Assembly (NCBI GenBank): GCA_963728565.1
Contig: CAVSLC010000015.1
Coordinates: 8,546 to 72,545 of the forward strand
From: an uncultured delta proteobacterium
GTDB taxonomy: Bacteria; Desulfobacterota; Binatia; UBA9968
Reading direction: 5' to 3'
Length of the DNA: 64,000 nt
Shown: positions 7,151 to 31,255 of the stretch, in pieces
How positions within the stretch are numbered: position 1 is the stretch's first letter
Layout of the letters: each line of letters begins with the position of its first letter
The notes under the pieces: model-generated
Told to the model about the DNA's origin: nothing
Database searches by the model: none
What the model saw: the letters and a program-made list of their open reading frames with translations, nothing else
Translations under genes and position numbers: made by a program

Positions 7151-7530
7151 TAACGGGGACAGACTACTTTTTTATCTACTTCCTCATTTCGCTTAGAGCG
7201 GGTCGGCCCCGTAGAGCCATCGTACTCTCTGATTGCATGAATCGGCTCAGAGACTAATGTGCGAAGCTTCAATCACAAAGTGAAAGTGATTCGGCATTAG
7301 AGAAAGCAAGCATCTTAACTGGGTGCCGCGTTTTTGCTAGCGCGAGCATGGAAAGAAAGGCTTGGTAATCTTGAGCGTGATGGAAGATAGTTGCGCGACC
7401 GTTCCCTCGGTTAATTACATGATAAACAAAACCAGCCTGTTGCGCATGCGGGATTGTCGGCATGGCAGGCCTTTATTATATAGGCGAACGTGATCACAAC
7501 GATGAAAATAGCCTGTCACCTTTAATCCCC
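7151..7530 (-). mobile_element. RAYT family A, internally deleted element with terminal inverted repeats
   Basis: YHVINRGNGR N-terminus joined to the 3' end; ends taacggggacagactacttt / aaatagcctgtcacctttaa. Confidence 0.85.
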
Positions 7531-12058: not shown

Positions 12059-12800
12059 TAAAGGGGACACGCTACTTCTTATCTACTTCCTCATTTTGCT
12101 GAAACCGGGTCGGCCCCATGAACGCATCGTACTCTCAGGTCCAATAGACCTGCAATCGACGTCTGCCAGTCTGGTTCTCCAAAAGGTCTTTAACGATTCA
12201 CTGACTAACGAATTGCAGCCAATTGCCGCGCTGATAGCGGTTCGTCCAAATGCGCCAGCCGGTCTGTCTCGACTTCGAAAGGACAGGGATCGGCCAGCTC
12301 GTTCCGACAGCAACTTGACTTACGGCCGATCATCTATCGACGCTGCCAAGCCTGATCTGACTGGATTCTGTAACACGTAGCGCACGACCATTAGCAAATG
12401 CTCATCGCGCTGCACTGGAAAACTTTTAAACCGGCCCTGCCAAACATGCCCGCTGCCGCCGTAATGCTTGTGATAACGCCGTACGTGACTGGTCAAGATC
12501 CCTTGCATGAATCGGCTCAGAGACTGGTGATGCGAAGCTCAATCAGAAAGTGAAAGTGATTCGGAATCAGAGAGAAAGCAAACAACTTAACTGGGTGCCG
12601 CGCTTTTGCTAGCGCGAGGATGCAAAGAAAGACTTGGTGATCTTGAGCTTGATGAAAGATAGTTACGCGACCGTTCCCTCGGTTGATCACATGATAAATA
12701 TAACCAGCCTGTTGCGCACGCGAGCTTCTTGGCATGGCAGGGCTTTATCATTTATGCGAACGTGATCACAAACGATGAAAGTCGCTTGTCCCTTAATCCC
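12059..12800 (-). mobile_element. RAYT family A element, near full length, transposase pseudogene (12083-12735)
   Basis: YHVINRGNGR, PNHFHF (HUH), GHVWQGRFKSFPV, RYVLQNPVR; frameshifts and stops; inverted repeats at both ends. Confidence 0.9.
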
Positions 12801-14540: not shown

Positions 14541-14680
14541 GCCGCGCCCGTTCTCCCGGTTGATCGAATGATAAAACAAAACCTGCCTCTTGCGCGCGCG
14601 GGATTCTCGGCATGGCAGGGCTTTATCATATAGGCGAACGGGATCACAACGATGAAAGTAGCCTGTCCCCTTTAATCCCC
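14541..14680 (-). mobile_element. RAYT family A 5'-end fragment
   Basis: Shares cggcatggcagggctttatcatataggcgaacg...aagtagcctgtcccctttaatcccc with the other copies. Confidence 0.8.
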
Positions 14681-14937
14681 TTCGAAAGTAAATGATCATG
14701 GCTCAACGACGCGGTGCCGTTCTCCGGCTCATTCGAAGTTAAACTCATTTTCAGAACACGCAGTCGATTAAAGCATCTAGGTACTGTGGCTCAACTAGCT
14801 AACTCCATACTTGACTTAAATGAAAAGCAGATGTTGCGAGCTGCACCTCGCAAATTGGGCGGTGACGGTCTCTAATGGACCAACATATTAACAGGCTGAC
14901 TCTGTGAGGAGTCGCCTAAGCCTAAAGGAGGTGCAGC

Positions 14938-16022
14938 ATGAAAGAGTATATAGGAGTGGACCTGGGGAAGCACAAGGCCGTGGTGGTAAAGAAAGATCGA
15001 CAGGGAAAGACAACCAGCAAGGTTACTGTACCTGTGACTCAAGCAGCATTGGAAAGTTATTTTTCGAAGCAGGACCGTCGAAGCCAGGTGGTGGTGGAGG
15101 CCACGGGGAACTGGATGTATCTCTACGAGACCATCGAGCGCTACACACCGGAGGTCGTCTTGGCACACCCACTTAAGACCCGGGCGATTGCCGAGGCACG
15201 GATTAAGACCGACACCATTGATGCGACGACCTTAGCGGAACTGCTACGTCTAGATGGCATCCCGAAAGCGTATATACCACCTCGTGAGGTTCGTGACATT
15301 CGAGAGTTGTTGCGTTACCGGGCCTCGCTGGTATCGATACGAGTCGGTATCAAGAACAAGATTCATGCGGTGCTGACCAAGAACGGCATCGATTGCACGT
15401 TCAGTGATATTTTGGGGAAATCCTCCCGGCAGTGGCTGAAGAGTCTAGCCGTGCGTGCTTGCTATCGGCTAGAGATTGATGGGTATCTACGGATCGCGGA
15501 GGCGTTGGCGATTTCGATTGGAGAGATCACAAAAACGATAAAGGCCGAGGTAGCTGAAAACCCACAGGCTCAACTATTGATGGGTATTCCGGGTATCAGC
15601 TACTACTCGGCTCTGTTAATCCTCAGTGAGATTGGTGAGGTAGACCGTTTTCCCAATGCCAAGCGATTGTGTTCGTATGCCGGCTTGGTTCCCAGTATCT
15701 ATAGCTCGGGAAGCAAGAGCTACAGCGGATCACCAAACAGGGTTCACGGTGGCTGCGATGGATTTTGGTAGAGATCAGCATCCATGCCGCCAACGGGGAT
15801 TCGAACTTTCAGAAAGTGTACCGCAGAGTGAGTCGACGACGCGGTCCTAGCACGGCGAGAGTGGCGGTAGCGCGAAAGATCCTCACTGTCATTTACGCCA
15901 TGCTAAAGCGAAGTGAGTCGTTTAACCGTCACAGACCTCGGCAACGACTTATGGCTGTACCTGGGCGAAAAAAAGTGACCGACGTCTCTGGTCATCCTCC
16001 TGGGGTCATGGTCCCGGCCTAA
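14938..16022 (+). pseudogene. IS110 transposase/recombinase with a frameshift near 15728
   Basis: DEDD motifs GVDLG, VEATG, KTDTIDA; SSG; ITKQGSRWLRWILVE restored in the next frame. Confidence 0.88.
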
Positions 16023-16200
16023 ACCGGAGATCCGAAGATTTGATTAGGAGACCAGAGTCGAATTCAATAATGTGCCGAAGAGCACGGATGAGTGACTGAC
16101 CGATTGGTCGACCGAGACCGAACAGAACTCTGGTCGCAAACAACGGCAGTGTGGGTGATTAGACTAACCCCACGCCTCCCGTGAAGAGGTGCATCTAAAC
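15984..16200 (+). ncRNA. Putative bridge/seek RNA of IS110 element 1
   Basis: Stem ctctggt/accagag plus ctcct/aggag enclosing ggggtca (reverse complement of target tgacccc); atgagtgact (16088) equals the donor junction. Confidence 0.65.
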
Positions 16201-21157: not shown

Positions 21158-21180
21158 CAGTTACGCTGCGGCAATAATAC

Positions 21181-21413
21181 ATCAGAGAGAAAGCAAACAT
21201 CTTAACTGGGTACCGCGCTTTGCTAGCGCACGGATGGAAAGAAAGGCTTGGTAATCTTGAGCTTCAAAAGGTCGTTCTGCGACCGTTCCTCGGTTGATCA
21301 CATGATAAACAAAACCAGCCTGTTGCGCATGCGGGATTCTCGGCAGGGCAGGGCTTTATCAAATAGACGCACGTGATCACAAACGAGAAAAGTAGCCTGT
21401 CCCCTTTAATCCC
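21181..21413 (-). mobile_element. RAYT family A 5'-end fragment
   Basis: Closely matches the other copies; ends aaaagtagcctgtcccctttaatccc. Confidence 0.85.
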
Positions 21414-21483: not shown

Positions 21484-22494
21484 TTATTCCCGTTTCTCCC
21501 ACCGTGCGATCAAGCCCAGCAAATCGCAGACGCGATTGGAGTATCCCCATTCATTGTCGTACCAACTGAGACACTTTAGATATCTACCGCCCGTAACGCT
21601 GGTAAATGCCGGGTCGAAAATAGAGGAGTGCGAATTCCCTATGACGTCGGATGATACGACGGGTGTTTCCATGAGTTGCAAAATGCCTTTCATCCGTTTC
21701 GAGTCCGCCGCGGATTTTATCGCGCCATGAACGTCCTCGGCACTAATACGTTTCTGGAGCTCGACGAACAAGTCGACCACGGAGCCATCGGGTACCGGTA
21801 CCCGCGCGGCGATTCCGTCCAGCCGTCCTTTCAATTCAGGCAAGACCTCGCCCACCGCCTTGGCCGCTCCGGTGGATGTCGGTATGATATTTTCCGCCGC
21901 GGCGCGGCTCCGCCGCCAATCCGAGTGCGGCACGTCGGCGAGGCGCTGATCGTTGGTGTAGGCGTGCACGGTATTGATGATTCCTTCCACGATACCGAAA
22001 GAATCGTGGAGCACCTTGGCCAGCGGCGCAAGACAATTCGTGGTGCAGCTCGCGTTAGAAATCATCCTGTGCTCGGGCTTGAGCCCGTCATCGTTGACGC
22101 CGATTACGACGGTATAATCGATCTCATCCTTCGCCGGAACGGTCAGCACCACTCGCTTGGCTCCCGCATCCAGATGCTTGGCAAGTTGTTCCCTGCTAGT
22201 GAATATTCCCGTCGATTCGATGACGACATCGATGTCGATCTCGCGCCAGGGCAGTTTGAGCGGGTCCTTTTCACGAAGCATGCGCGTCCGACCGTGCGAT
22301 GTCACCAGTTCATTGCCTTCGAGTCGCAGGGCGCCCTCAAAACGACCCATTACGGTGTCATAGTTGAGCAAGTATCGCAGCGCGTCATGGTCGAAGAGGT
22401 CATTGATCGCAACCAGTTCGGCGTCCGCCCGCTTATCGAGAATGCGGAACACAGAACGGCCGATTCGACCGAATCCATTAATGGCAACTCTCAT
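21484..22494 (-). CDS. gap: Type I glyceraldehyde-3-phosphate dehydrogenase
   Basis: INGFGRIGR, SNASCTTNCLAP, WYDNEWGYSNR. Confidence 0.95.
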   Translation of the reverse strand: MRVAINGFGRIGRSVFRILDKRADAELVAINDLFDHDALRYLLNYDTVMGRFEGALRLEGNELVTSHGRTRMLREKDPLKLPWREIDIDVVIESTGIFTSREQLAKHLDAGAKRVVLTVPAKDEIDYTVVIGVNDDGLKPEHRMISNASCTTNCLAPLAKVLHDSFGIVEGIINTVHAYTNDQRLADVPHSDWRRSRAAAENIIPTSTGAAKAVGEVLPELKGRLDGIAARVPVPDGSVVDLFVELQKRISAEDVHGAIKSAADSKRMKGILQLMETPVVSSDVIGNSHSSIFDPAFTSVTGGRYLKCLSWYDNEWGYSNRVCDLLGLIARWEKRE

Positions 22495-23510
22495 CGCCCA
22501 CCTCCGATCGTATCGAGGGTGCTGTAGTGCCGGACCACTTCGAGCACGCGGCACGCATGCCCCAGGCTCTCATACCAGGCCAGCACTTTGATTATTCTTT
22601 TTCCTGCTTTAATGGTGGCGAGCGAATCGAAGAGCAAGGATTGCCGGCAACCGATGACATCCGAAGAAACAATCGGATCATCGGTCACGCCGATCAACGT
22701 CGGATGATCGGCAGCGGCGGCGCGCATAGCTCCGCTCACTTGCTCGGCCGTGACGGTGCCAGCCTGCATGACGCAGTTAACATCGAGCAATGATCCGCGT
22801 TGGACCGGCACGTTAAGGGCGTAACCGCTCAACTTTCCCTCAAACTTGGGCAGAACAAGCTCCACCCATCGCGCGGACTCATTGTTGTTGGGGATGATAT
22901 TCTCCGCCGCGGACCGGCTGCGCCGGAAATCTTTGTGTGCATAATTCTGCAGCGACTGATCGCTACTATAGGCGTGGACCGTCGTCATCGATGCGCAGTC
23001 GACTCCTAAGGCCTGATCCAGAGATTGCAATAAAAGCGCAAATGCATTGGTGGTCGCGGAACCGGCCGAAATCATTTTGTCCGCGGCGGCGGCGCTCCCT
23101 TCATTGATTCCCGGTACTACGATACGGTCGATTGATTCCGCCGGCAGCGACGCCAGAATGACCCGCGGGGCACCGGCGCGCAGATGGGCCTCCATGTCCC
23201 GACGACTCTTATATCTGCCTGTGGCATCGACGACGCAGTGGACATCCAGAACATCCCATGGAACCTCCTCCGGCCGGACAAGCTGGAGCATTCTTGTGCG
23301 GAACTTCTCGTTGATCAGGTAATTGTCCTGGAGCTCGCAGGGCGCCTCGTCCACGCCGTCGCTATTGAGCAGATACTGAATGATTTCAGGTTTGCCGATA
23401 TCGGCCACCGCGACGATTTCGATATCATCTATTTCCCGCGCAAGGTGATACAGATGCCGCCCAATTTGGCCCAATCCCATAATGCCGATTCGGATTTTAC
23501 CATTACGCAT
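22491..23510 (-). CDS. GAPDH-like protein lacking the catalytic Cys
   Basis: GLGQIGR; SAGSATTNA in place of SNASCTTNC; VHAY; WYE. Confidence 0.88.
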   Translation of the reverse strand: MRNGKIRIGIMGLGQIGRHLYHLAREIDDIEIVAVADIGKPEIIQYLLNSDGVDEAPCELQDNYLINEKFRTRMLQLVRPEEVPWDVLDVHCVVDATGRYKSRRDMEAHLRAGAPRVILASLPAESIDRIVVPGINEGSAAAADKMISAGSATTNAFALLLQSLDQALGVDCASMTTVHAYSSDQSLQNYAHKDFRRSRSAAENIIPNNNESARWVELVLPKFEGKLSGYALNVPVQRGSLLDVNCVMQAGTVTAEQVSGAMRAAAADHPTLIGVTDDPIVSSDVIGCRQSLLFDSLATIKAGKRIIKVLAWYESLGHACRVLEVVRHYSTLDTIGGGR

Positions 23511-23632: not shown

Positions 23633-23950
23633 TAAAGGGGAGAGGCTACTTTTTATCTACTTCCTCATTTCGCTGAGACTGGTGATGCGAAGCTTCAATC
23701 AGAAAGTGCAAGTGATTCGGCATCAGAGCGAAAGCAAACATCTTAACTGGGTGCCGCGCTTTGCTAGCGCGAGGATGGAAAGAAAGACTTGGTAATCTTG
23801 AGCTTTATCAGAGATAGTTGCACGACCGTTACCTCGATTGATCACATGATAAATGAAACCAGCCTGTTGCGCACGTCGGCATGGCAGGGCTTTCATACAG
23901 GCGAACGTGATCACAGACGATGAAAGTAGCCTATCCCCTTTAATCCCCCC
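23633..23950 (-). mobile_element. RAYT family A miniature element (both ends, internal deletion)
   Basis: taaaggggagaggctactttt ... aagtagcctatcccctttaa. Confidence 0.85.
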
Positions 23951-24170
23951 GATTTGAACATGGTTCGCGCCCGAGTGGTTACGCATCCCTGTGATTGGAC
24001 ACACAGCGGCGCATCGCGAAGTCATTGAAAGTGGCGGTACATATGAGCTCCGGGAGCAGACTCAAAGTTATGGGTCCAATTTCGGCGGTTAAATGAGGTG
24101 CTAAGCTTGGATATACTAGCTTCTGGAACGAAGATTTAAACCTAGTGCAACTTAGGCTTGGTCCGACCCC
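23951..24170 (+). mobile_element. RAYT family C deleted fragment with an intact cttggtccgacccc end
   Basis: Matches 26399-26451 joined to ~26687-26850. Confidence 0.75.
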
Positions 24171-26314: not shown

Positions 26315-26850
26315 TTCGTCACGGCGCATTTTGGAGACCGCTATCATGCCACGGCCATCGAGATTAACGAGCAACTTCAACATTGTCTCGTTTACATCGA
26401 TTTGAATATAGTTCGCGCCGGAGTCGTTACGCATCCCTGTAATTGGACACACGCGGGTTATCGAGAGATGCAGAAACCCCCCGAAGCGCTACGGGATTAT
26501 CGATCTACCGGAGTTAAGTTCGCTATGTGGATTCGGCGACGTTGCAACATTTCAGCAAGCACATCGTCGGTGGGTAGATGATTCACTCGCGCGCGAGGCG
26601 ATGGCAAGAGAAGGTGCGTGGTCAGAAGCGATTGCGGTCGGCAATTTGAATTTTGTTGATAAGGTGCAGAACGAACTCGGATACAAAGCGGCACACCGCG
26701 AAGTCATTGAAAGTGGCGGTACATATGAGCTCCGGGAGCAGACTGAAAGTTATGGGTCCAATTTTAGCGGTCAAAATGAGGTGCTAAGCTCGGAGAACAC
26801 TAGATTTTGGAACGAAAGTTCCGAAGTTACTGCAACTTAGCTTGGTCCGA
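26315..26850 (+). pseudogene. RAYT family C transposase, 3' half
   Basis: AFW..RYHATAIE, CLVYIDLNIVRAGVVTHP..W, WSEAIAVG. Confidence 0.8.
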
Positions 26851-26928
26851 TAATCATCTAGCAGGCTCCTTCGATAGGCCGTAACGTGCGGGGACATCAA
26901 CCCACACCCGCTCAAAGGAGGAAGCGAG

Positions 26929-27945
26929 ATGAAATTGTACGGAGCTATTGATTTGCATTCCAACAACAACGTGACGGTGGTGATCAACGAGCAAGATCAA
27001 GTGTTGTATCAGAAGCGCTTGCCCAACGATCTTTCGTTGATCGCGCAGCAACTCTCGAGCTATCGCAGATCGCTACAGGGAATCGTGGTGGAGTCTACCT
27101 ATAACTGGTACTGGCTGGTCGATGGACTGATGGAGAAGGGCCATCAAGTTCATCTGGCCAACACCGCGGCGATCCAGCAATACAATGGGCTGAAGTACAC
27201 CGATGACCACAGCGACGCGCGGTGGCTGGCCCATCTGCTGCGGCTAGGGGTCTTACCCGAGGGCTACATTTATCCCAAGGAAGAGCGAGCGGTGCGTGAT
27301 TTGTTGCGCAAGCGCGGCCAGCTCGTGCATCAGAGGACGGCTAATCTTCTCAGTATCCAGAGTCTAATCAGCCGGACCACGGGAAACTCGATCGGCACCC
27401 AGTACATCAAAGCGCTCAATATCGAACATCTGGATGGAGTCTTACCTAACCCGGATCACATCCTTGCACTCAAAGCCAATCTGGCAGTCATGAAAAGCGC
27501 TGATGCCCAGATCGAGATCTTGGAAAAAGCCGTCCAGGACCGAGTCAAGCTACGACCTCAGTTCGGATTTCTAAAGACGGTACCCGGAATCGGGCCGATC
27601 CTGGCGCTGACGATCATGCTCGAGACCGGAGAGATCGAGAGATTTGCCTGTGTCGGCAATTACGCTTCGTACTGTCGCTGTGTGGGGAGCCAGAAGATCA
27701 GCAACGGCAAACGTAAAGGAATCGGCAATACCAAAAACGGCAACAAGTATTTGGCCTGGGCGTTTGTAGAGGCTGCCAATTTTGCGATCCGGTTTAATTC
27801 GAAGATCAAAGGCTTCTATCAGAAAAAGAAATCTAAGAGCAATGGGATTGTGGCAATCAAAGCGGTGGCCCACAAGCTCTGCCGGGCTTGCTACTACATT
27901 ATCAAAGATCAGGTGGCTTTTGATCTCACCAAAGCGTTTGCTTAG
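26929..27945 (+). CDS. IS110 transposase/recombinase, intact
   Basis: AIDLH, VVEST, TDDHSDA, VPGIG, SNG, NKYLAWAFVEAA. Confidence 0.93.
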   Translation: MKLYGAIDLHSNNNVTVVINEQDQVLYQKRLPNDLSLIAQQLSSYRRSLQGIVVESTYNWYWLVDGLMEKGHQVHLANTAAIQQYNGLKYTDDHSDARWLAHLLRLGVLPEGYIYPKEERAVRDLLRKRGQLVHQRTANLLSIQSLISRTTGNSIGTQYIKALNIEHLDGVLPNPDHILALKANLAVMKSADAQIEILEKAVQDRVKLRPQFGFLKTVPGIGPILALTIMLETGEIERFACVGNYASYCRCVGSQKISNGKRKGIGNTKNGNKYLAWAFVEAANFAIRFNSKIKGFYQKKKSKSNGIVAIKAVAHKLCRACYYIIKDQVAFDLTKAFA

Positions 27946-27959
27946 CAGATCGATTTAAC

Positions 27960-28320
27960 GGTTGGGATGGGATAGTGAGCCTTGGCTGGGGTTGGCTTAG
28001 AACCACATGGTCCGATTTGGCGGCTCTCCCGTCCCTGATCATATGGACAACTCGGCGGTGCTGTGATTCGATGGACGCCCACGCCGTGAGCCACAATAGG
28101 GTTGGCCCCCAACAGGGAGAGCCACAGGATCTGTGATCCTATAACCTTGGACGCGGCGTGGTACCGATAGTTTTCTGGGGCAATTAAGATTGCCAGGGGC
28201 GCGAGATCGCTGCCCGAGAGGACAGCTCTCAAAGCCTTGAACCTGATGGGTGACTGGTGCGTACCTACGGTCCGACACCAACTGATTGAAAACAGGGGCG
28301 CGTCAATCAGGGATCACATA
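27960..28320 (+). ncRNA. Putative bridge/seek RNA of IS110 element 2
   Basis: Stem gggatggga/tcccgtccc plus gagcc/ggctc enclosing ggggttgg and tggtccga, both matching the target; further hairpins downstream. Confidence 0.65.
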
Positions 28321-28582
28321 GTCGGCGAGGGTTCAAAAAGGGAATAAGAAAAATTCTCACAGGAACGTCTGTGCCTCTTGACCTGCCTGCTAATGGGCGA
28401 CCCAACGCTTTGTACGCAAAACTGACTTTCACCATGGGCTGCTAAACGTGGAGAGCCTCGAACAAACGCTTGGGGGAGACTCAGAGAGAAGCCGCCCATT
28501 GAAAAGTAGGCCGTTTGGCTTTCCCCATCAGAGTGGCGTGGGATCTGATGGGGAAAGCCGCGACCAGAACACTCGACAATCG

Positions 28583-30184: not shown

Positions 30185-30457
30185 TTGCATGAATCGGCTC
30201 AGAGACTGGTGATGCGAAGCTTCAATTACAAAGTGAAAGTGATTCGGCATCAGAGCGAAGCAAACCTTAACTGGGTGCCGCGCTTTGCTAGCGCGAGGAT
30301 GGAAAGAAAGGCTTGGTAATCTTGAGCTTTATGAAAGATAGTTGCGCCGACCGACCGTGATTGATCACATGATAAACAAAACCAGCCTGTTGCGCGCGCG
30401 GATTCTCGGCATGACAGGGGCTTTATCATATAGGCGAACGGGATCACAAACGATGAA
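30185..30457 (-). mobile_element. RAYT family A 5' fragment
   Basis: ATIFHKAQDYQAFLSILALAK; closely matches the other copies. Confidence 0.85.
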
Positions 30458-31255
30458 GGACGAGTGCGGGAGTAATGAACTTCGTGCGGATGTCCGCTTC
30501 GGTGAGTTCCTTTTTATTCATGCCAAGTAGCAGCTCGAAGGACCGGCAGGGTTAAAGTATCGCTCATACCGGGATGGGAGCTCGGGAAATACTAATCGAA
30601 GTGGCTGGAATTGCGCAAGACTTCTCAGAAGGCAGGGTCATCAGGTTGCCGCGTGAGTTATTGATTTGTTTGCCTGCAACTACCCACTTTGGAGATCGCA
30701 GCCGTTCAAAGGTTCAACGAAAGACAAGTCAGATGCGAACTCCACGTTTCGAGAATTCCCGAAATGTCGAAATGGCAATTCTAATACCGACCTGGAAATT
30801 GGAAAACTTCTCGTCGCCAGCTAACGGGTTCCCATCTTTGTATTTTGACGTTTTCGTTTTCTGTTGGGTCTCACCACGTGGTCAACGTGAGAGCACCGTC
30901 CTTTGTTTCAGTTTGGACGAATTCTTCGGGATAACCCAACAAACCCGGCAGAAGGCCTGATGAGTACCGGAGATCGATCGTGTTAAGTCTATCTAAAAGC
31001 ACTATTTCTAGCCCGCGCACCGCCATCCACCCGGCGATCAGTGCCGCAGTCACCGGGGCAAACTGAACCGTGCCCATCGGCACCCGGCACCGTCCGCGCA
31101 GCGCGGGAAGACCATGGGCTTAGGCATGAGTCGGGATTATCATTATATTGACCACGCGGGAGGTGGATGCTAGCGTTTGGGCCTGGTAGAGGATCACTAT
31201 CGAGCGGCTGCTGTTGTGCTGTGAACGGGGCTATCAAGCCCGGGAAGGAGCTCTT

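Follow-up and report, generated by a model that had tools for sequence, protein, structure and literature searches.

We found an intact insertion sequence of the IS110 family, belonging to the IS1111 group and to an ISGsu4-like subfamily, in 64,000 nt of DNA from an uncultured delta proteobacterium (Desulfobacterota; Binatia; UBA9968). This whole stretch, called the window below, is GCA_963728565.1, contig CAVSLC010000015.1, positions 8,546-72,545. RNA-guided IS110/IS1111 recombinases and their bridge or seek RNAs were described in 2024. The element (26850-28399, plus strand, 1,550 bp) lies at a CG core between a left (LT) and a right (RT) target flank, in the tail of a degenerate IS200/RAYT-like repeat, and its 3' non-coding region (NCR) very probably yields a bridge/seek RNA with guides for both target and donor. 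This region is long, with 454 nt (27946-28399) downstream of the transposase gene (tnp) versus 78 nt of non-coding sequence upstream. Folded as a single sequence it was only modestly better than its shuffles (z = -2.41; one shuffle in 100 scored equally well); the real support for an RNA lies in the comparison with relatives. This comparison covered up to 160 related loci, the best 80 from each of a genome set and a metagenome set (more than 1,100 relatives).

The target is read by hairpin 1. Its 5' guide, GGGGTTG(G) at 27988-27994, is a wobble-tolerant complement to the top strand of the core and right flank. Its 3' guide, TGGTC-CG-AT at 28008-28016 (TGGTCCGA at 28008), equals the left flank, the core and the first two nucleotides of the left end. 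This is the published order for IS1111 elements: according to the text of PMC11187229, the seekRNA lies just downstream of tnp and its top-strand match is placed 5' of its bottom-strand match, the two overlapping in the target. TGGTCCGA occurs six times in the window, both strands counted, versus 2.03 expected; about 0.007 occurrences are expected per 455 nt on one strand.

Both guides varied together with the DNA that they match. When every NCR column was scanned against every flank and end column (62 loci; L019, L044 and L050 were left out for doubtful ends), LT-1, LT-2 and LT-4 were associated with 28009-28012, and RT+3 and RT+5 with 27988-27990. An own-versus-other test of the two guides gave p = 7e-8 and p = 1e-6. 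Register-anchored tests, performed on 75 of 82 loci, yielded paired fractions of 0.79-0.99 at LT-1 to LT-5 versus 0.48-0.79 after permutation (reached by 0/1000), and the pairing at RT+1, +3, +4 and +5 was reached by 0/500 permutations. To control for relatedness, 25 nearest-neighbour pairs were compared, each locus being used once. Here the 3' guide differed at 21/34 positions where the flank differed and at 6/66 where it did not (p = 5e-8); for the 5' guide the counts were 3/13 and 1/87 (p = 0.0065). The hairpin itself was conserved as a structure. Compensatory changes were present in 13 of the 14 pairs of its outer stem, and 76.4% of the cells were paired versus 63.9% in shuffles; neither this value nor the covariation score was reached by any of 500 shuffles. 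A covariance model of the hairpin (R1) scored 64.5 bits at this locus (E = 2.6e-15) and found no second copy in the genome.

The donor is read by a separate strand. The sequence ATGGGTGA(C) at 28246 (ATGGGTGAC) equals the right end, the core and the first two nucleotides of the right flank; in its core a U of the RNA stands in place of the C of the end, giving a G.U pair. In the column scan, positions -3 and -4 of the left donor (LD), that is, of the right end, were associated with 28247, and RT+1 with 28253. The own-versus-other test gave p = 3e-5 for this guide. The strand follows variants of the right end, namely GAG (L025, L042, L056) and GGC (L019, L127), and also the first flank base, whether A, T, C or G. 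Thus it reads TG-TC where the flank starts with T, TG-TT in L067, TG-CG in L037, TG-CT in L118 and TG-GC in L033, L057 and L149; four loci (L058, L061, L065, L142) do not fit the first flank base.

Nucleotides next to a core that match the non-cognate partner were defined as 'handshake' guides for IS621 (Hiraizumi 2024; PMC11208158, text). The two nucleotides after the core of hairpin 1 have this property, as they match the donor and not the target: the 3' guide continues with AT where the left end is ATAAT and with AA where it is AAAAT or AAGAT. Position +2 of the left end (right donor, RD) was paired with 28017 at 0.97 versus 0.71 (column scan). The preliminary description of this DNA, made from its letters alone, had proposed a guide RNA in the 3' NCR, with two target guides in hairpin 1 and a guide for the right end in the motif atgggtga at 28246. 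The co-variation of both hairpin 1 guides with the matching flanks, and of the donor strand with right-end variants and the first flank base, supports these assignments and, with the co-varying helices of a structured region of about 350 nt, argues for the predicted RNA.

The donor strand is embedded in a multi-helix domain (domain 2, 28068-28303), where it lies unpaired in the junction that helix B encloses. Helix counts for this domain refer to 52 of 59 distinct sequences; seven with large insertions or a deletion were left out. Its helices had 93.7% of cells paired versus 74.4% in shuffles, with compensatory changes in 25 of 33 pairs, and an alternative structure had 92.3% of cells paired and 28 of 39 pairs with such changes. 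In the one set, 28071-78 pairs with 28259-67 in a helix (95% paired, 6/8 pairs compensatory) that makes a pseudoknot with helix B. In the other, P5 forms together with a helix of 28075-78 and 28300-03 (96% paired). The two sets are mutually exclusive, and both show compensatory changes in the 52 relatives; on this pattern, they could be a conformational switch of the RNA.

A second ggtccgac at 28269 had been put forward as a further guide, and this we no longer hold. The sequence (GGTCCGAC, 28269-28276; two occurrences versus 2.19 expected in the window) is part of the 3' strand of P5, a conserved stem strand. There (G/A)(G/A)TCCGACACC is retained even by relatives whose left flanks are quite different, and the P5 region did not track the left flank in the own-versus-other test. 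The match to the target is a coincidence of the CG core and GGTC flank of this clade. The extra hairpins as such, on whose conservation the preliminary description had made its reading depend, were kept across relatives, with co-varying stems.

Relatives of the element are very common, being encoded in 557/599 candidate stretches of genome contigs and 579/599 of metagenome contigs; annotated plasmid relatives with 53% identity are named 'IS110-like element ISGsu4 family'. The whole 3' NCR could be aligned in the closest relatives (75-93% identity), and distant ones keep the part matching 28075-28305, with a near-invariant block, GCCTTGAWCCTGATGGGTGACTGG. The structured conserved part amounts to about 350 nt. 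In this subfamily the NCR as a rule measures 390-470 nt and contains the same helices, so that the length and the many hairpins are a subfamily trait and not special to the present copy.

The conserved blocks could instead be DNA sites, for protein binding or as a promoter, with no role as RNA. We consider this extremely unlikely: the lack of an Rfam match and of direct RNA evidence for the window copy would agree with it, but the base pairs of seven helices show dozens of compensatory changes, as expected of RNA pairing and not of DNA sites, and homologous regions of tested IS1111 members give transposase-bound RNA (text of PMC11187229). As to transcription, at least a third of the element's words were present in 14 DNA runs of soil metagenomes, and four soil RNA libraries from three studies held contigs 90-100% alike that cover parts of tnp and the NCR. 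Examples are contigs matching 28028-28180 without a difference, 28096-28312 with one difference, and 27800-28102 across the stop codon. This cover is a weak hint of transcription.

Another reading concerns the distal NCR (approximately 28191-28399), which might be a separate, hitch-hiking module moved by the transposase, as ssr9 is in ISPpu9 (PMC12288879, text), and not part of a guide RNA. A solo copy of exactly this part, 213 nt long, exists on another contig of the assembly (C10; L002, 1501-1716). It comprises the distal NCR and right end, is 84% identical to 28191-28403 and adjoins an open reading frame (ORF) for an IS200-like Y1_Tnp. However, its right end is decayed and no box resembling a left end accompanies it; it looks like a truncated fossil, probably of a second insertion. 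Helix B and the helix between 28075-78 and 28300-03 span the supposed boundary with compensatory changes, and the distal part is contiguous with the rest of the NCR in all relatives. A separate module is very unlikely on these grounds, and we rejected it.

Several points weigh against a functional guide RNA in this element. The permutation tests ignore relatedness, and only the test of 25 pairs controls for it. For the stem of hairpin 1, 122/500 shuffles had at least as many pairs in which both sides had changed. At the occupied site, the 5' guide pairs at 6/7 positions with one G.A mismatch, two of the positions relying on the core; with the empty allele it pairs at 7/7. Rfam yielded no match at gathering score in the window, and below that threshold (E <= 10) it yielded only STAXI on the opposite strand (20.6 bits versus a cutoff of 40.5), which is nothing usable. 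The RNA-library contigs come from other samples and are strandless, and such libraries can hold DNA. With regard to activity in this host, the 4.5-Mb assembly (28 contigs) holds only one full copy, one exact empty site and the decayed 213-nt fragment of the distal NCR. Finally, a guide for the left end (RD) was not found by the column scan, by own-versus-other windows in both senses or by inspection of segments; RD is nearly invariant, and these co-variation tests therefore had little power. Segments considered for this role were CGATAG at 28165 (relatives whose core is TG do not retain CGATA), GTTTTC-TGG (its GTTTTC is the 5' strand of helix B), and GTGATT at 28064 and AATCC of hairpin 2 (on inspection, no segment co-varied with RD).

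Between hairpin 1 and the donor strand lies a second hairpin with target-like sequences, and the preliminary description had suggested that the guide loops of the RNA might number more than two. In hairpin 2, CACGCCG (28080-86) and CGGCGTG (28154-60) form the stem; GTGAGCC starts at 28086 and GGGTTGG at 28099. All aligned relatives possess this hairpin, which has the motifs GTGAGCC...GGGGT-TG-G...(A/G)CCA in common with hairpin 1. The core and right flank find a complement in its 5' strand, GGGTTG (28099-28104), and its 3' strand, GGATC-TG (28127-28133), resembles the left flank and core; the complementarity is short, about 4+2+4 nt. Two explanations of hairpin 2 have to be weighed.

According to the first, hairpin 2 is a protein-binding scaffold only, for the recombinase dimer on the donor side. 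Its likeness to hairpin 1 would come from common protein-recognition motifs and an old duplication, and its target-like nucleotides would have been frozen as a copy of the target most common in the subfamily, AAGACC-TG-ACCCC. We give this an even chance. GTGAGCC, TTGG and (A/G)CCA are common to both hairpins and nearly invariant. The consensus strands GGATYTG and GGGGT-TG fit the commonest flanks 7/7 and are unchanged in many retargeted relatives (24/34 differing positions). A frozen copy should stay constant when the flank changes, whereas the strands of hairpin 2 change with it in several lineages: the clade with right flank ACTTTT, L052/L067, L150/L154, L117, L071, L032 and L152.

According to the second, hairpin 2 is a real third loop with short guides, binding the target flanks beside the target loop and the donor strand. 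It might, for example, hold flanks or junctions during excision or after strand exchange. We regard both the loop and such a role as possible but doubtful. The hairpin occurs in all aligned relatives with a co-varying stem. Its 5' strand is complementary to the core and RT+1 to +4, and the pairing at RT+3 and RT+4 was above all 500 permutations. In the ACTTTT clade this strand is AAAAGT or CAAAGT in 4/5 loci and AAAAGG in one, not GGGGT, and its matching base is A where the flank starts with T and G where it starts with C; it is also changed where the flank starts with CG (L037). For the 3' strand, pairing at LT-1, -2 and -4 was higher than in any of 1000 permutations (mean 3.71 versus 3.17 pairs, 0/2000), and this strand is closer to the hairpin 1 guide of its own locus than to those of others (longest common substring 5.33 versus 4.65, p = 2e-4). 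In the 25 independent pairs it changes at 10/34 positions where the flank differs and at 6/66 where it does not (p = 0.011).

Other results do not favor a third guide loop. The wobble-tolerant own-versus-other test gave p = 0.19 and p = 0.52 for hairpin 2; this window test is noisy for short guides (baseline 6.3-7 of 9) and was superseded by the register-anchored tests. For the 5' strand, the independent pairs gave p = 0.17 and the test of likeness to hairpin 1 gave p = 0.12. In the window element, only 5/7 positions of the 3' strand fit the left flank. In this clade GGAT pairs with a downstream ATCC in a small hairpin, which explains part of the constancy of the 3' strand. The same pattern would arise from gene conversion between the hairpins or from RNA-RNA pairing to the donor strand at its TG-AC, and a single-loop seekRNA of 82 nt suffices in ISEc11 (PMC11187229, text). 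The hairpin 1 model also lacks a match to hairpin 2. With R1, hairpin 2 was not detected as a homologue of hairpin 1 at E <= 10 with filters off, and the 15 other hits (E 0.24-9.9) were noise. Thus, of the idea of more than two guide loops, a weak co-variation of both hairpin 2 strands with the flanks stands; the hairpin 1 model and several non-significant tests do not bear it out. One may imagine a bridge RNA with three DNA-reading places (target loop, donor strand and a hairpin 2 that co-evolves with the flanks) in which the two exclusive helix sets switch between states such as excision and insertion, a model that we think improbable as a whole.

One clade (L130, L131, L138, L149, L150 and L154, all on metagenome contigs) is retargeted to the right flank ACTTTTCC. 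Hairpins 1 and 2 have both changed from GGGG to AAAA there, and the guides for the left flank fit the observed left flanks poorly.

The anatomy of the element was established by re-reading the sequence; the motifs and junctions of the preliminary description were all present at its coordinates, and domains, ends, core and long downstream NCR all fit the intact IS1111-type element that it had named. CGA is present at both junctions, which leaves the boundary uncertain by 3 nt. Comparison of the occupied site with the empty allele shows site-specific insertion without target duplication, only the core being shared. Exact TGGTCCGACCC was found once in the assembly, as the empty site at 24157, and sites with one mismatch were not enriched in the own genome (51 versus 82 in a reversed-pattern control). 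An RNA-library contig from another sample carries an uninterrupted site, matching 26800-26850 and then continuing with CCCCTGAG (CCCC...), which fixes the left boundary independently. The subterminal inverted repeats are 8 bp long (8-12 bp in relatives), within the 7-17 bp typical of the IS1111 group, and lie 9 and 7 nt from the left and right tips, respectively. Conserved motifs allowed the ends to be recognised in 65/81 sequences and later in 112/161. The consensus is YG-ATAATCATCTAG followed by the repeat on the left and CTTGAC...repeat-TA-ATGGG-YG on the right, and the commonest flanks are AAGACC-TG-ACCCC. Among the eight closest sequences (the window and seven loci), the seven with both ends had an identical core Y in left flank and right end (7/7); the core is CG in the window and L003 and TG in the other five.

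Joining of the ends in a circle may form a promoter, with TTGACC as -35 and GATAAT at the left tip as -10. The spacer across the joined ends is 15 nt in the window element and 17 nt in relatives with longer repeats. The basis for this reading of the ends is that junction promoters of IS1111 elements have been published (PMC11187229, text).

The occupied and the empty site are both at the tail of a repeat that resembles a degenerate IS200/RAYT-type gene; on another contig, a related copy contains an ORF for Y1_Tnp. Members of this direct-repeat family (85-200 nt, 60-94% alike; 7299-7520, 12566-12792, 14555-14670, 21180-21403, 23721-24170, 26400-26850 and 30245-30470) contain pieces that look like the C-terminal portion of transposases of the IS200/RAYT type (Y1). 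The IS1111 target CTTGGTCCGACCC forms the end of two copies, which indicates that the element inserts into the tail of a different repeated element. The repeat with the empty site is immediately preceded, on the minus strand at 21484-23510, by two adjacent glyceraldehyde-3-phosphate dehydrogenase genes (PF00044, PF02800).

The transposase has an N-terminal DEDD (RuvC-like) domain (PF01548, DEDD_Tnp_IS110, E = 3.8e-14) and the C-terminal domain PF02371 (E = 4.7e-16). It aligns end to end with 75 intact relatives and has the D8, E55, D..D and S-N-G that are invariant among them. Among solved structures, ISCro4 (E = 4.8e-8) and IS621 (E = 5.7e-6) matched in the C-terminal domain, a weak similarity. 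The family's conserved C-terminal Ser lies in a G..P....S(G) motif; here it is the Ser of KISNG, conserved in relatives, which aligns with the Ser of ...ESG in ISCro4, and the residue that follows is N, not G. A second, unrelated IS110-family element lies at 14700-16050. Its ORF (14938-15771, 277 aa) encodes PF01548 and an incomplete PF02371; the remainder of this C-terminal domain continues in another frame after approximately 15770, so that the gene looks frameshifted; a long non-coding stretch is upstream of the ORF, as in the IS110 group.

Features of the element and its target sites (positions of the window)
Feature	Position	Strand	Evidence or remark
Empty target site, paralogous, CTTGGTC-CG-ACCCC (CTTGGTCCGACCCC)	24157-24170	+	Tail of second copy of the repeat unit occupied by the element
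Left target flank (LT, CTTAGCTTGGTC) and left CG core copy	26836-26849	+	Sequence reading
Left junction, CTTGGTC-CG/ATAATC	26841-26855	+	Sequence reading; left end after core is ATAATCATC
Left end, with terminal extension ATAATCATC; its subterminal inverted repeat is TAGCAGGC (26859-26866)	26850-26866	+	
tnp ORF, 338 aa, intact	26929-27945	+	PF01548 and PF02371; strong AGGAGG site 7 nt upstream
Hairpin 1, target-binding loop (seekRNA)	27964-28035	+	Guide/flank and stem co-variation
Strand X	28071-28078	+	Pairs with 28259-28267 (long-range, pseudoknot with helix B) or, via 28075-78, with 28300-03
Hairpin 2, outer stem 28079-87/28152-60	28079-28160	+	91% paired, 8/9 pairs compensatory
Helix B, GTTTTC (28170-75) with GAAAAC (28288-93); encloses P3, P4, donor guide and P5	28170-28293	+	91% paired, compensatory changes
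P3	28179-83/28190-94	+	97% paired, compensatory changes
P4 closing helix	28196-200/28234-38	+	97% paired, compensatory changes
Left-donor guide ATGGG, core TG and handshake AC	28246-28254	+	Co-varies with right end and first flank base
P5 hairpin, 28256-65 with 28269-79	28256-28279	+	88% paired, 6/10 pairs compensatory
Right end: TTGACC (-35-like, 28378-83), right subterminal inverted repeat GCCTGCTA (28385-92), AATGGG, core CG (28398-99)	28378-28399	+	
Right junction, AATGGG-CG/ACCCAAC	28392-28406	+	Sequence reading; right end before core is CTAATGGG
Right target flank ACCCAACGC	28400-28408	+	Sequence; RNA-library contigs of other samples diverge after 28403

From the anatomy, the conservation, and the co-variation of helices and of guides with DNA, we infer the following scheme for the promoter, for how the RNA is processed and bound by the recombinase, and for the order in which strands are exchanged. 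The 3' NCR would be transcribed with or after tnp, from the promoter formed when the circle ends join, and the transcript would give the bridge/seek RNA. The 5' strand of hairpin 1 would pair with the top strand of the core and right flank, and its 3' strand with the bottom strand of the left flank and core; the two further nucleotides that match the left end would make a handshake stabilising the exchanged strand. The multi-helix domain (28068-28303) would present ATGGG-TG-AC in a multi-loop, for pairing with the bottom strand of the right end and core and for a handshake with the first two nucleotides of the right flank. Hairpin 2 would most simply serve as the scaffold for the second recombinase dimer, keeping its short target-like strands.

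How does the element compare with known systems? Like it, ISEc11, ISPa11 and ISKpn4 (Siddiquee et al. 2024; text of PMC11187229) encode DEDD transposases in the range of 330-350 aa, have subterminal inverted repeats and carry a long downstream NCR. As in these elements, a hairpin after the stop codon has a 5' segment matching the top strand and a 3' segment matching the bottom strand, with overlap at the insertion point, and targets are often the ends of other repeats or mobile elements. The window protein is, however, only distantly related to theirs, and their seekRNAs are given as 82-96 and 148-172 nt, as against approximately 350 structured nt within a 454-nt NCR here. The donor-end guide and the handshake co-variation are not described in the text of that report, figures and supplements aside. 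Multi-loop donor binding is described for many IS1111 bridge RNAs in the text of Durrant 2024 (PMC11208160).

As the texts of PMC11208160 and PMC11208158 describe for IS621 and ISCro4, target and donor are recognised from two sides around a shared core by guides on both strands, with 2-nt handshake guides beside the core that match the non-cognate partner. When the opposite DNA strand is read, hairpin 1 and the donor strand have the order of the IS621 left target guide (LTG), right target guide with handshake guide (RTG+HSG), and right donor guide with handshake guide (RDG+HSG). The same layout on the opposite strand explains the 'reversed order' reported for IS1111. Unlike that of IS621 and ISCro4, judged by the same texts, the present RNA is encoded 3' and not 5' of tnp, and its donor guide is in a multi-helix junction instead of a simple internal loop. 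It also has an extra target-like hairpin, mutually exclusive helices and a pseudoknot, and a second donor guide was not found in it. ISPpu9 with ssr9 (PMC12288879, text) likewise has extra RNA-coding sequence downstream of tnp and solo copies elsewhere in the genome; here, in contrast, co-varying helices tie the distal to the proximal part, and the single solo copy is a decayed fragment. In the literature searched, an IS1111-group RNA had nowhere been studied structurally or loop by loop, and a second target-like loop was not described, although figures and supplements of the 2024 papers may show comparable folds.

As an element it is intact and ordinary, belonging to an RNA-guided family that is already known, and its multi-hairpin RNA is a trait of the subfamily. 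What the comparison adds is a map of an IS1111-subfamily RNA, in which target guides, donor guide and handshake nucleotides are all supported by co-variation, together with evidence that the handshake rule of IS621 also holds in the IS1111 group. It also raises a concrete question, that of the second target-like hairpin and the alternative helices. If hairpin 2 does read DNA, this would be relevant to flank recognition by IS1111 elements in excision and to designing editing RNAs based on IS1111.

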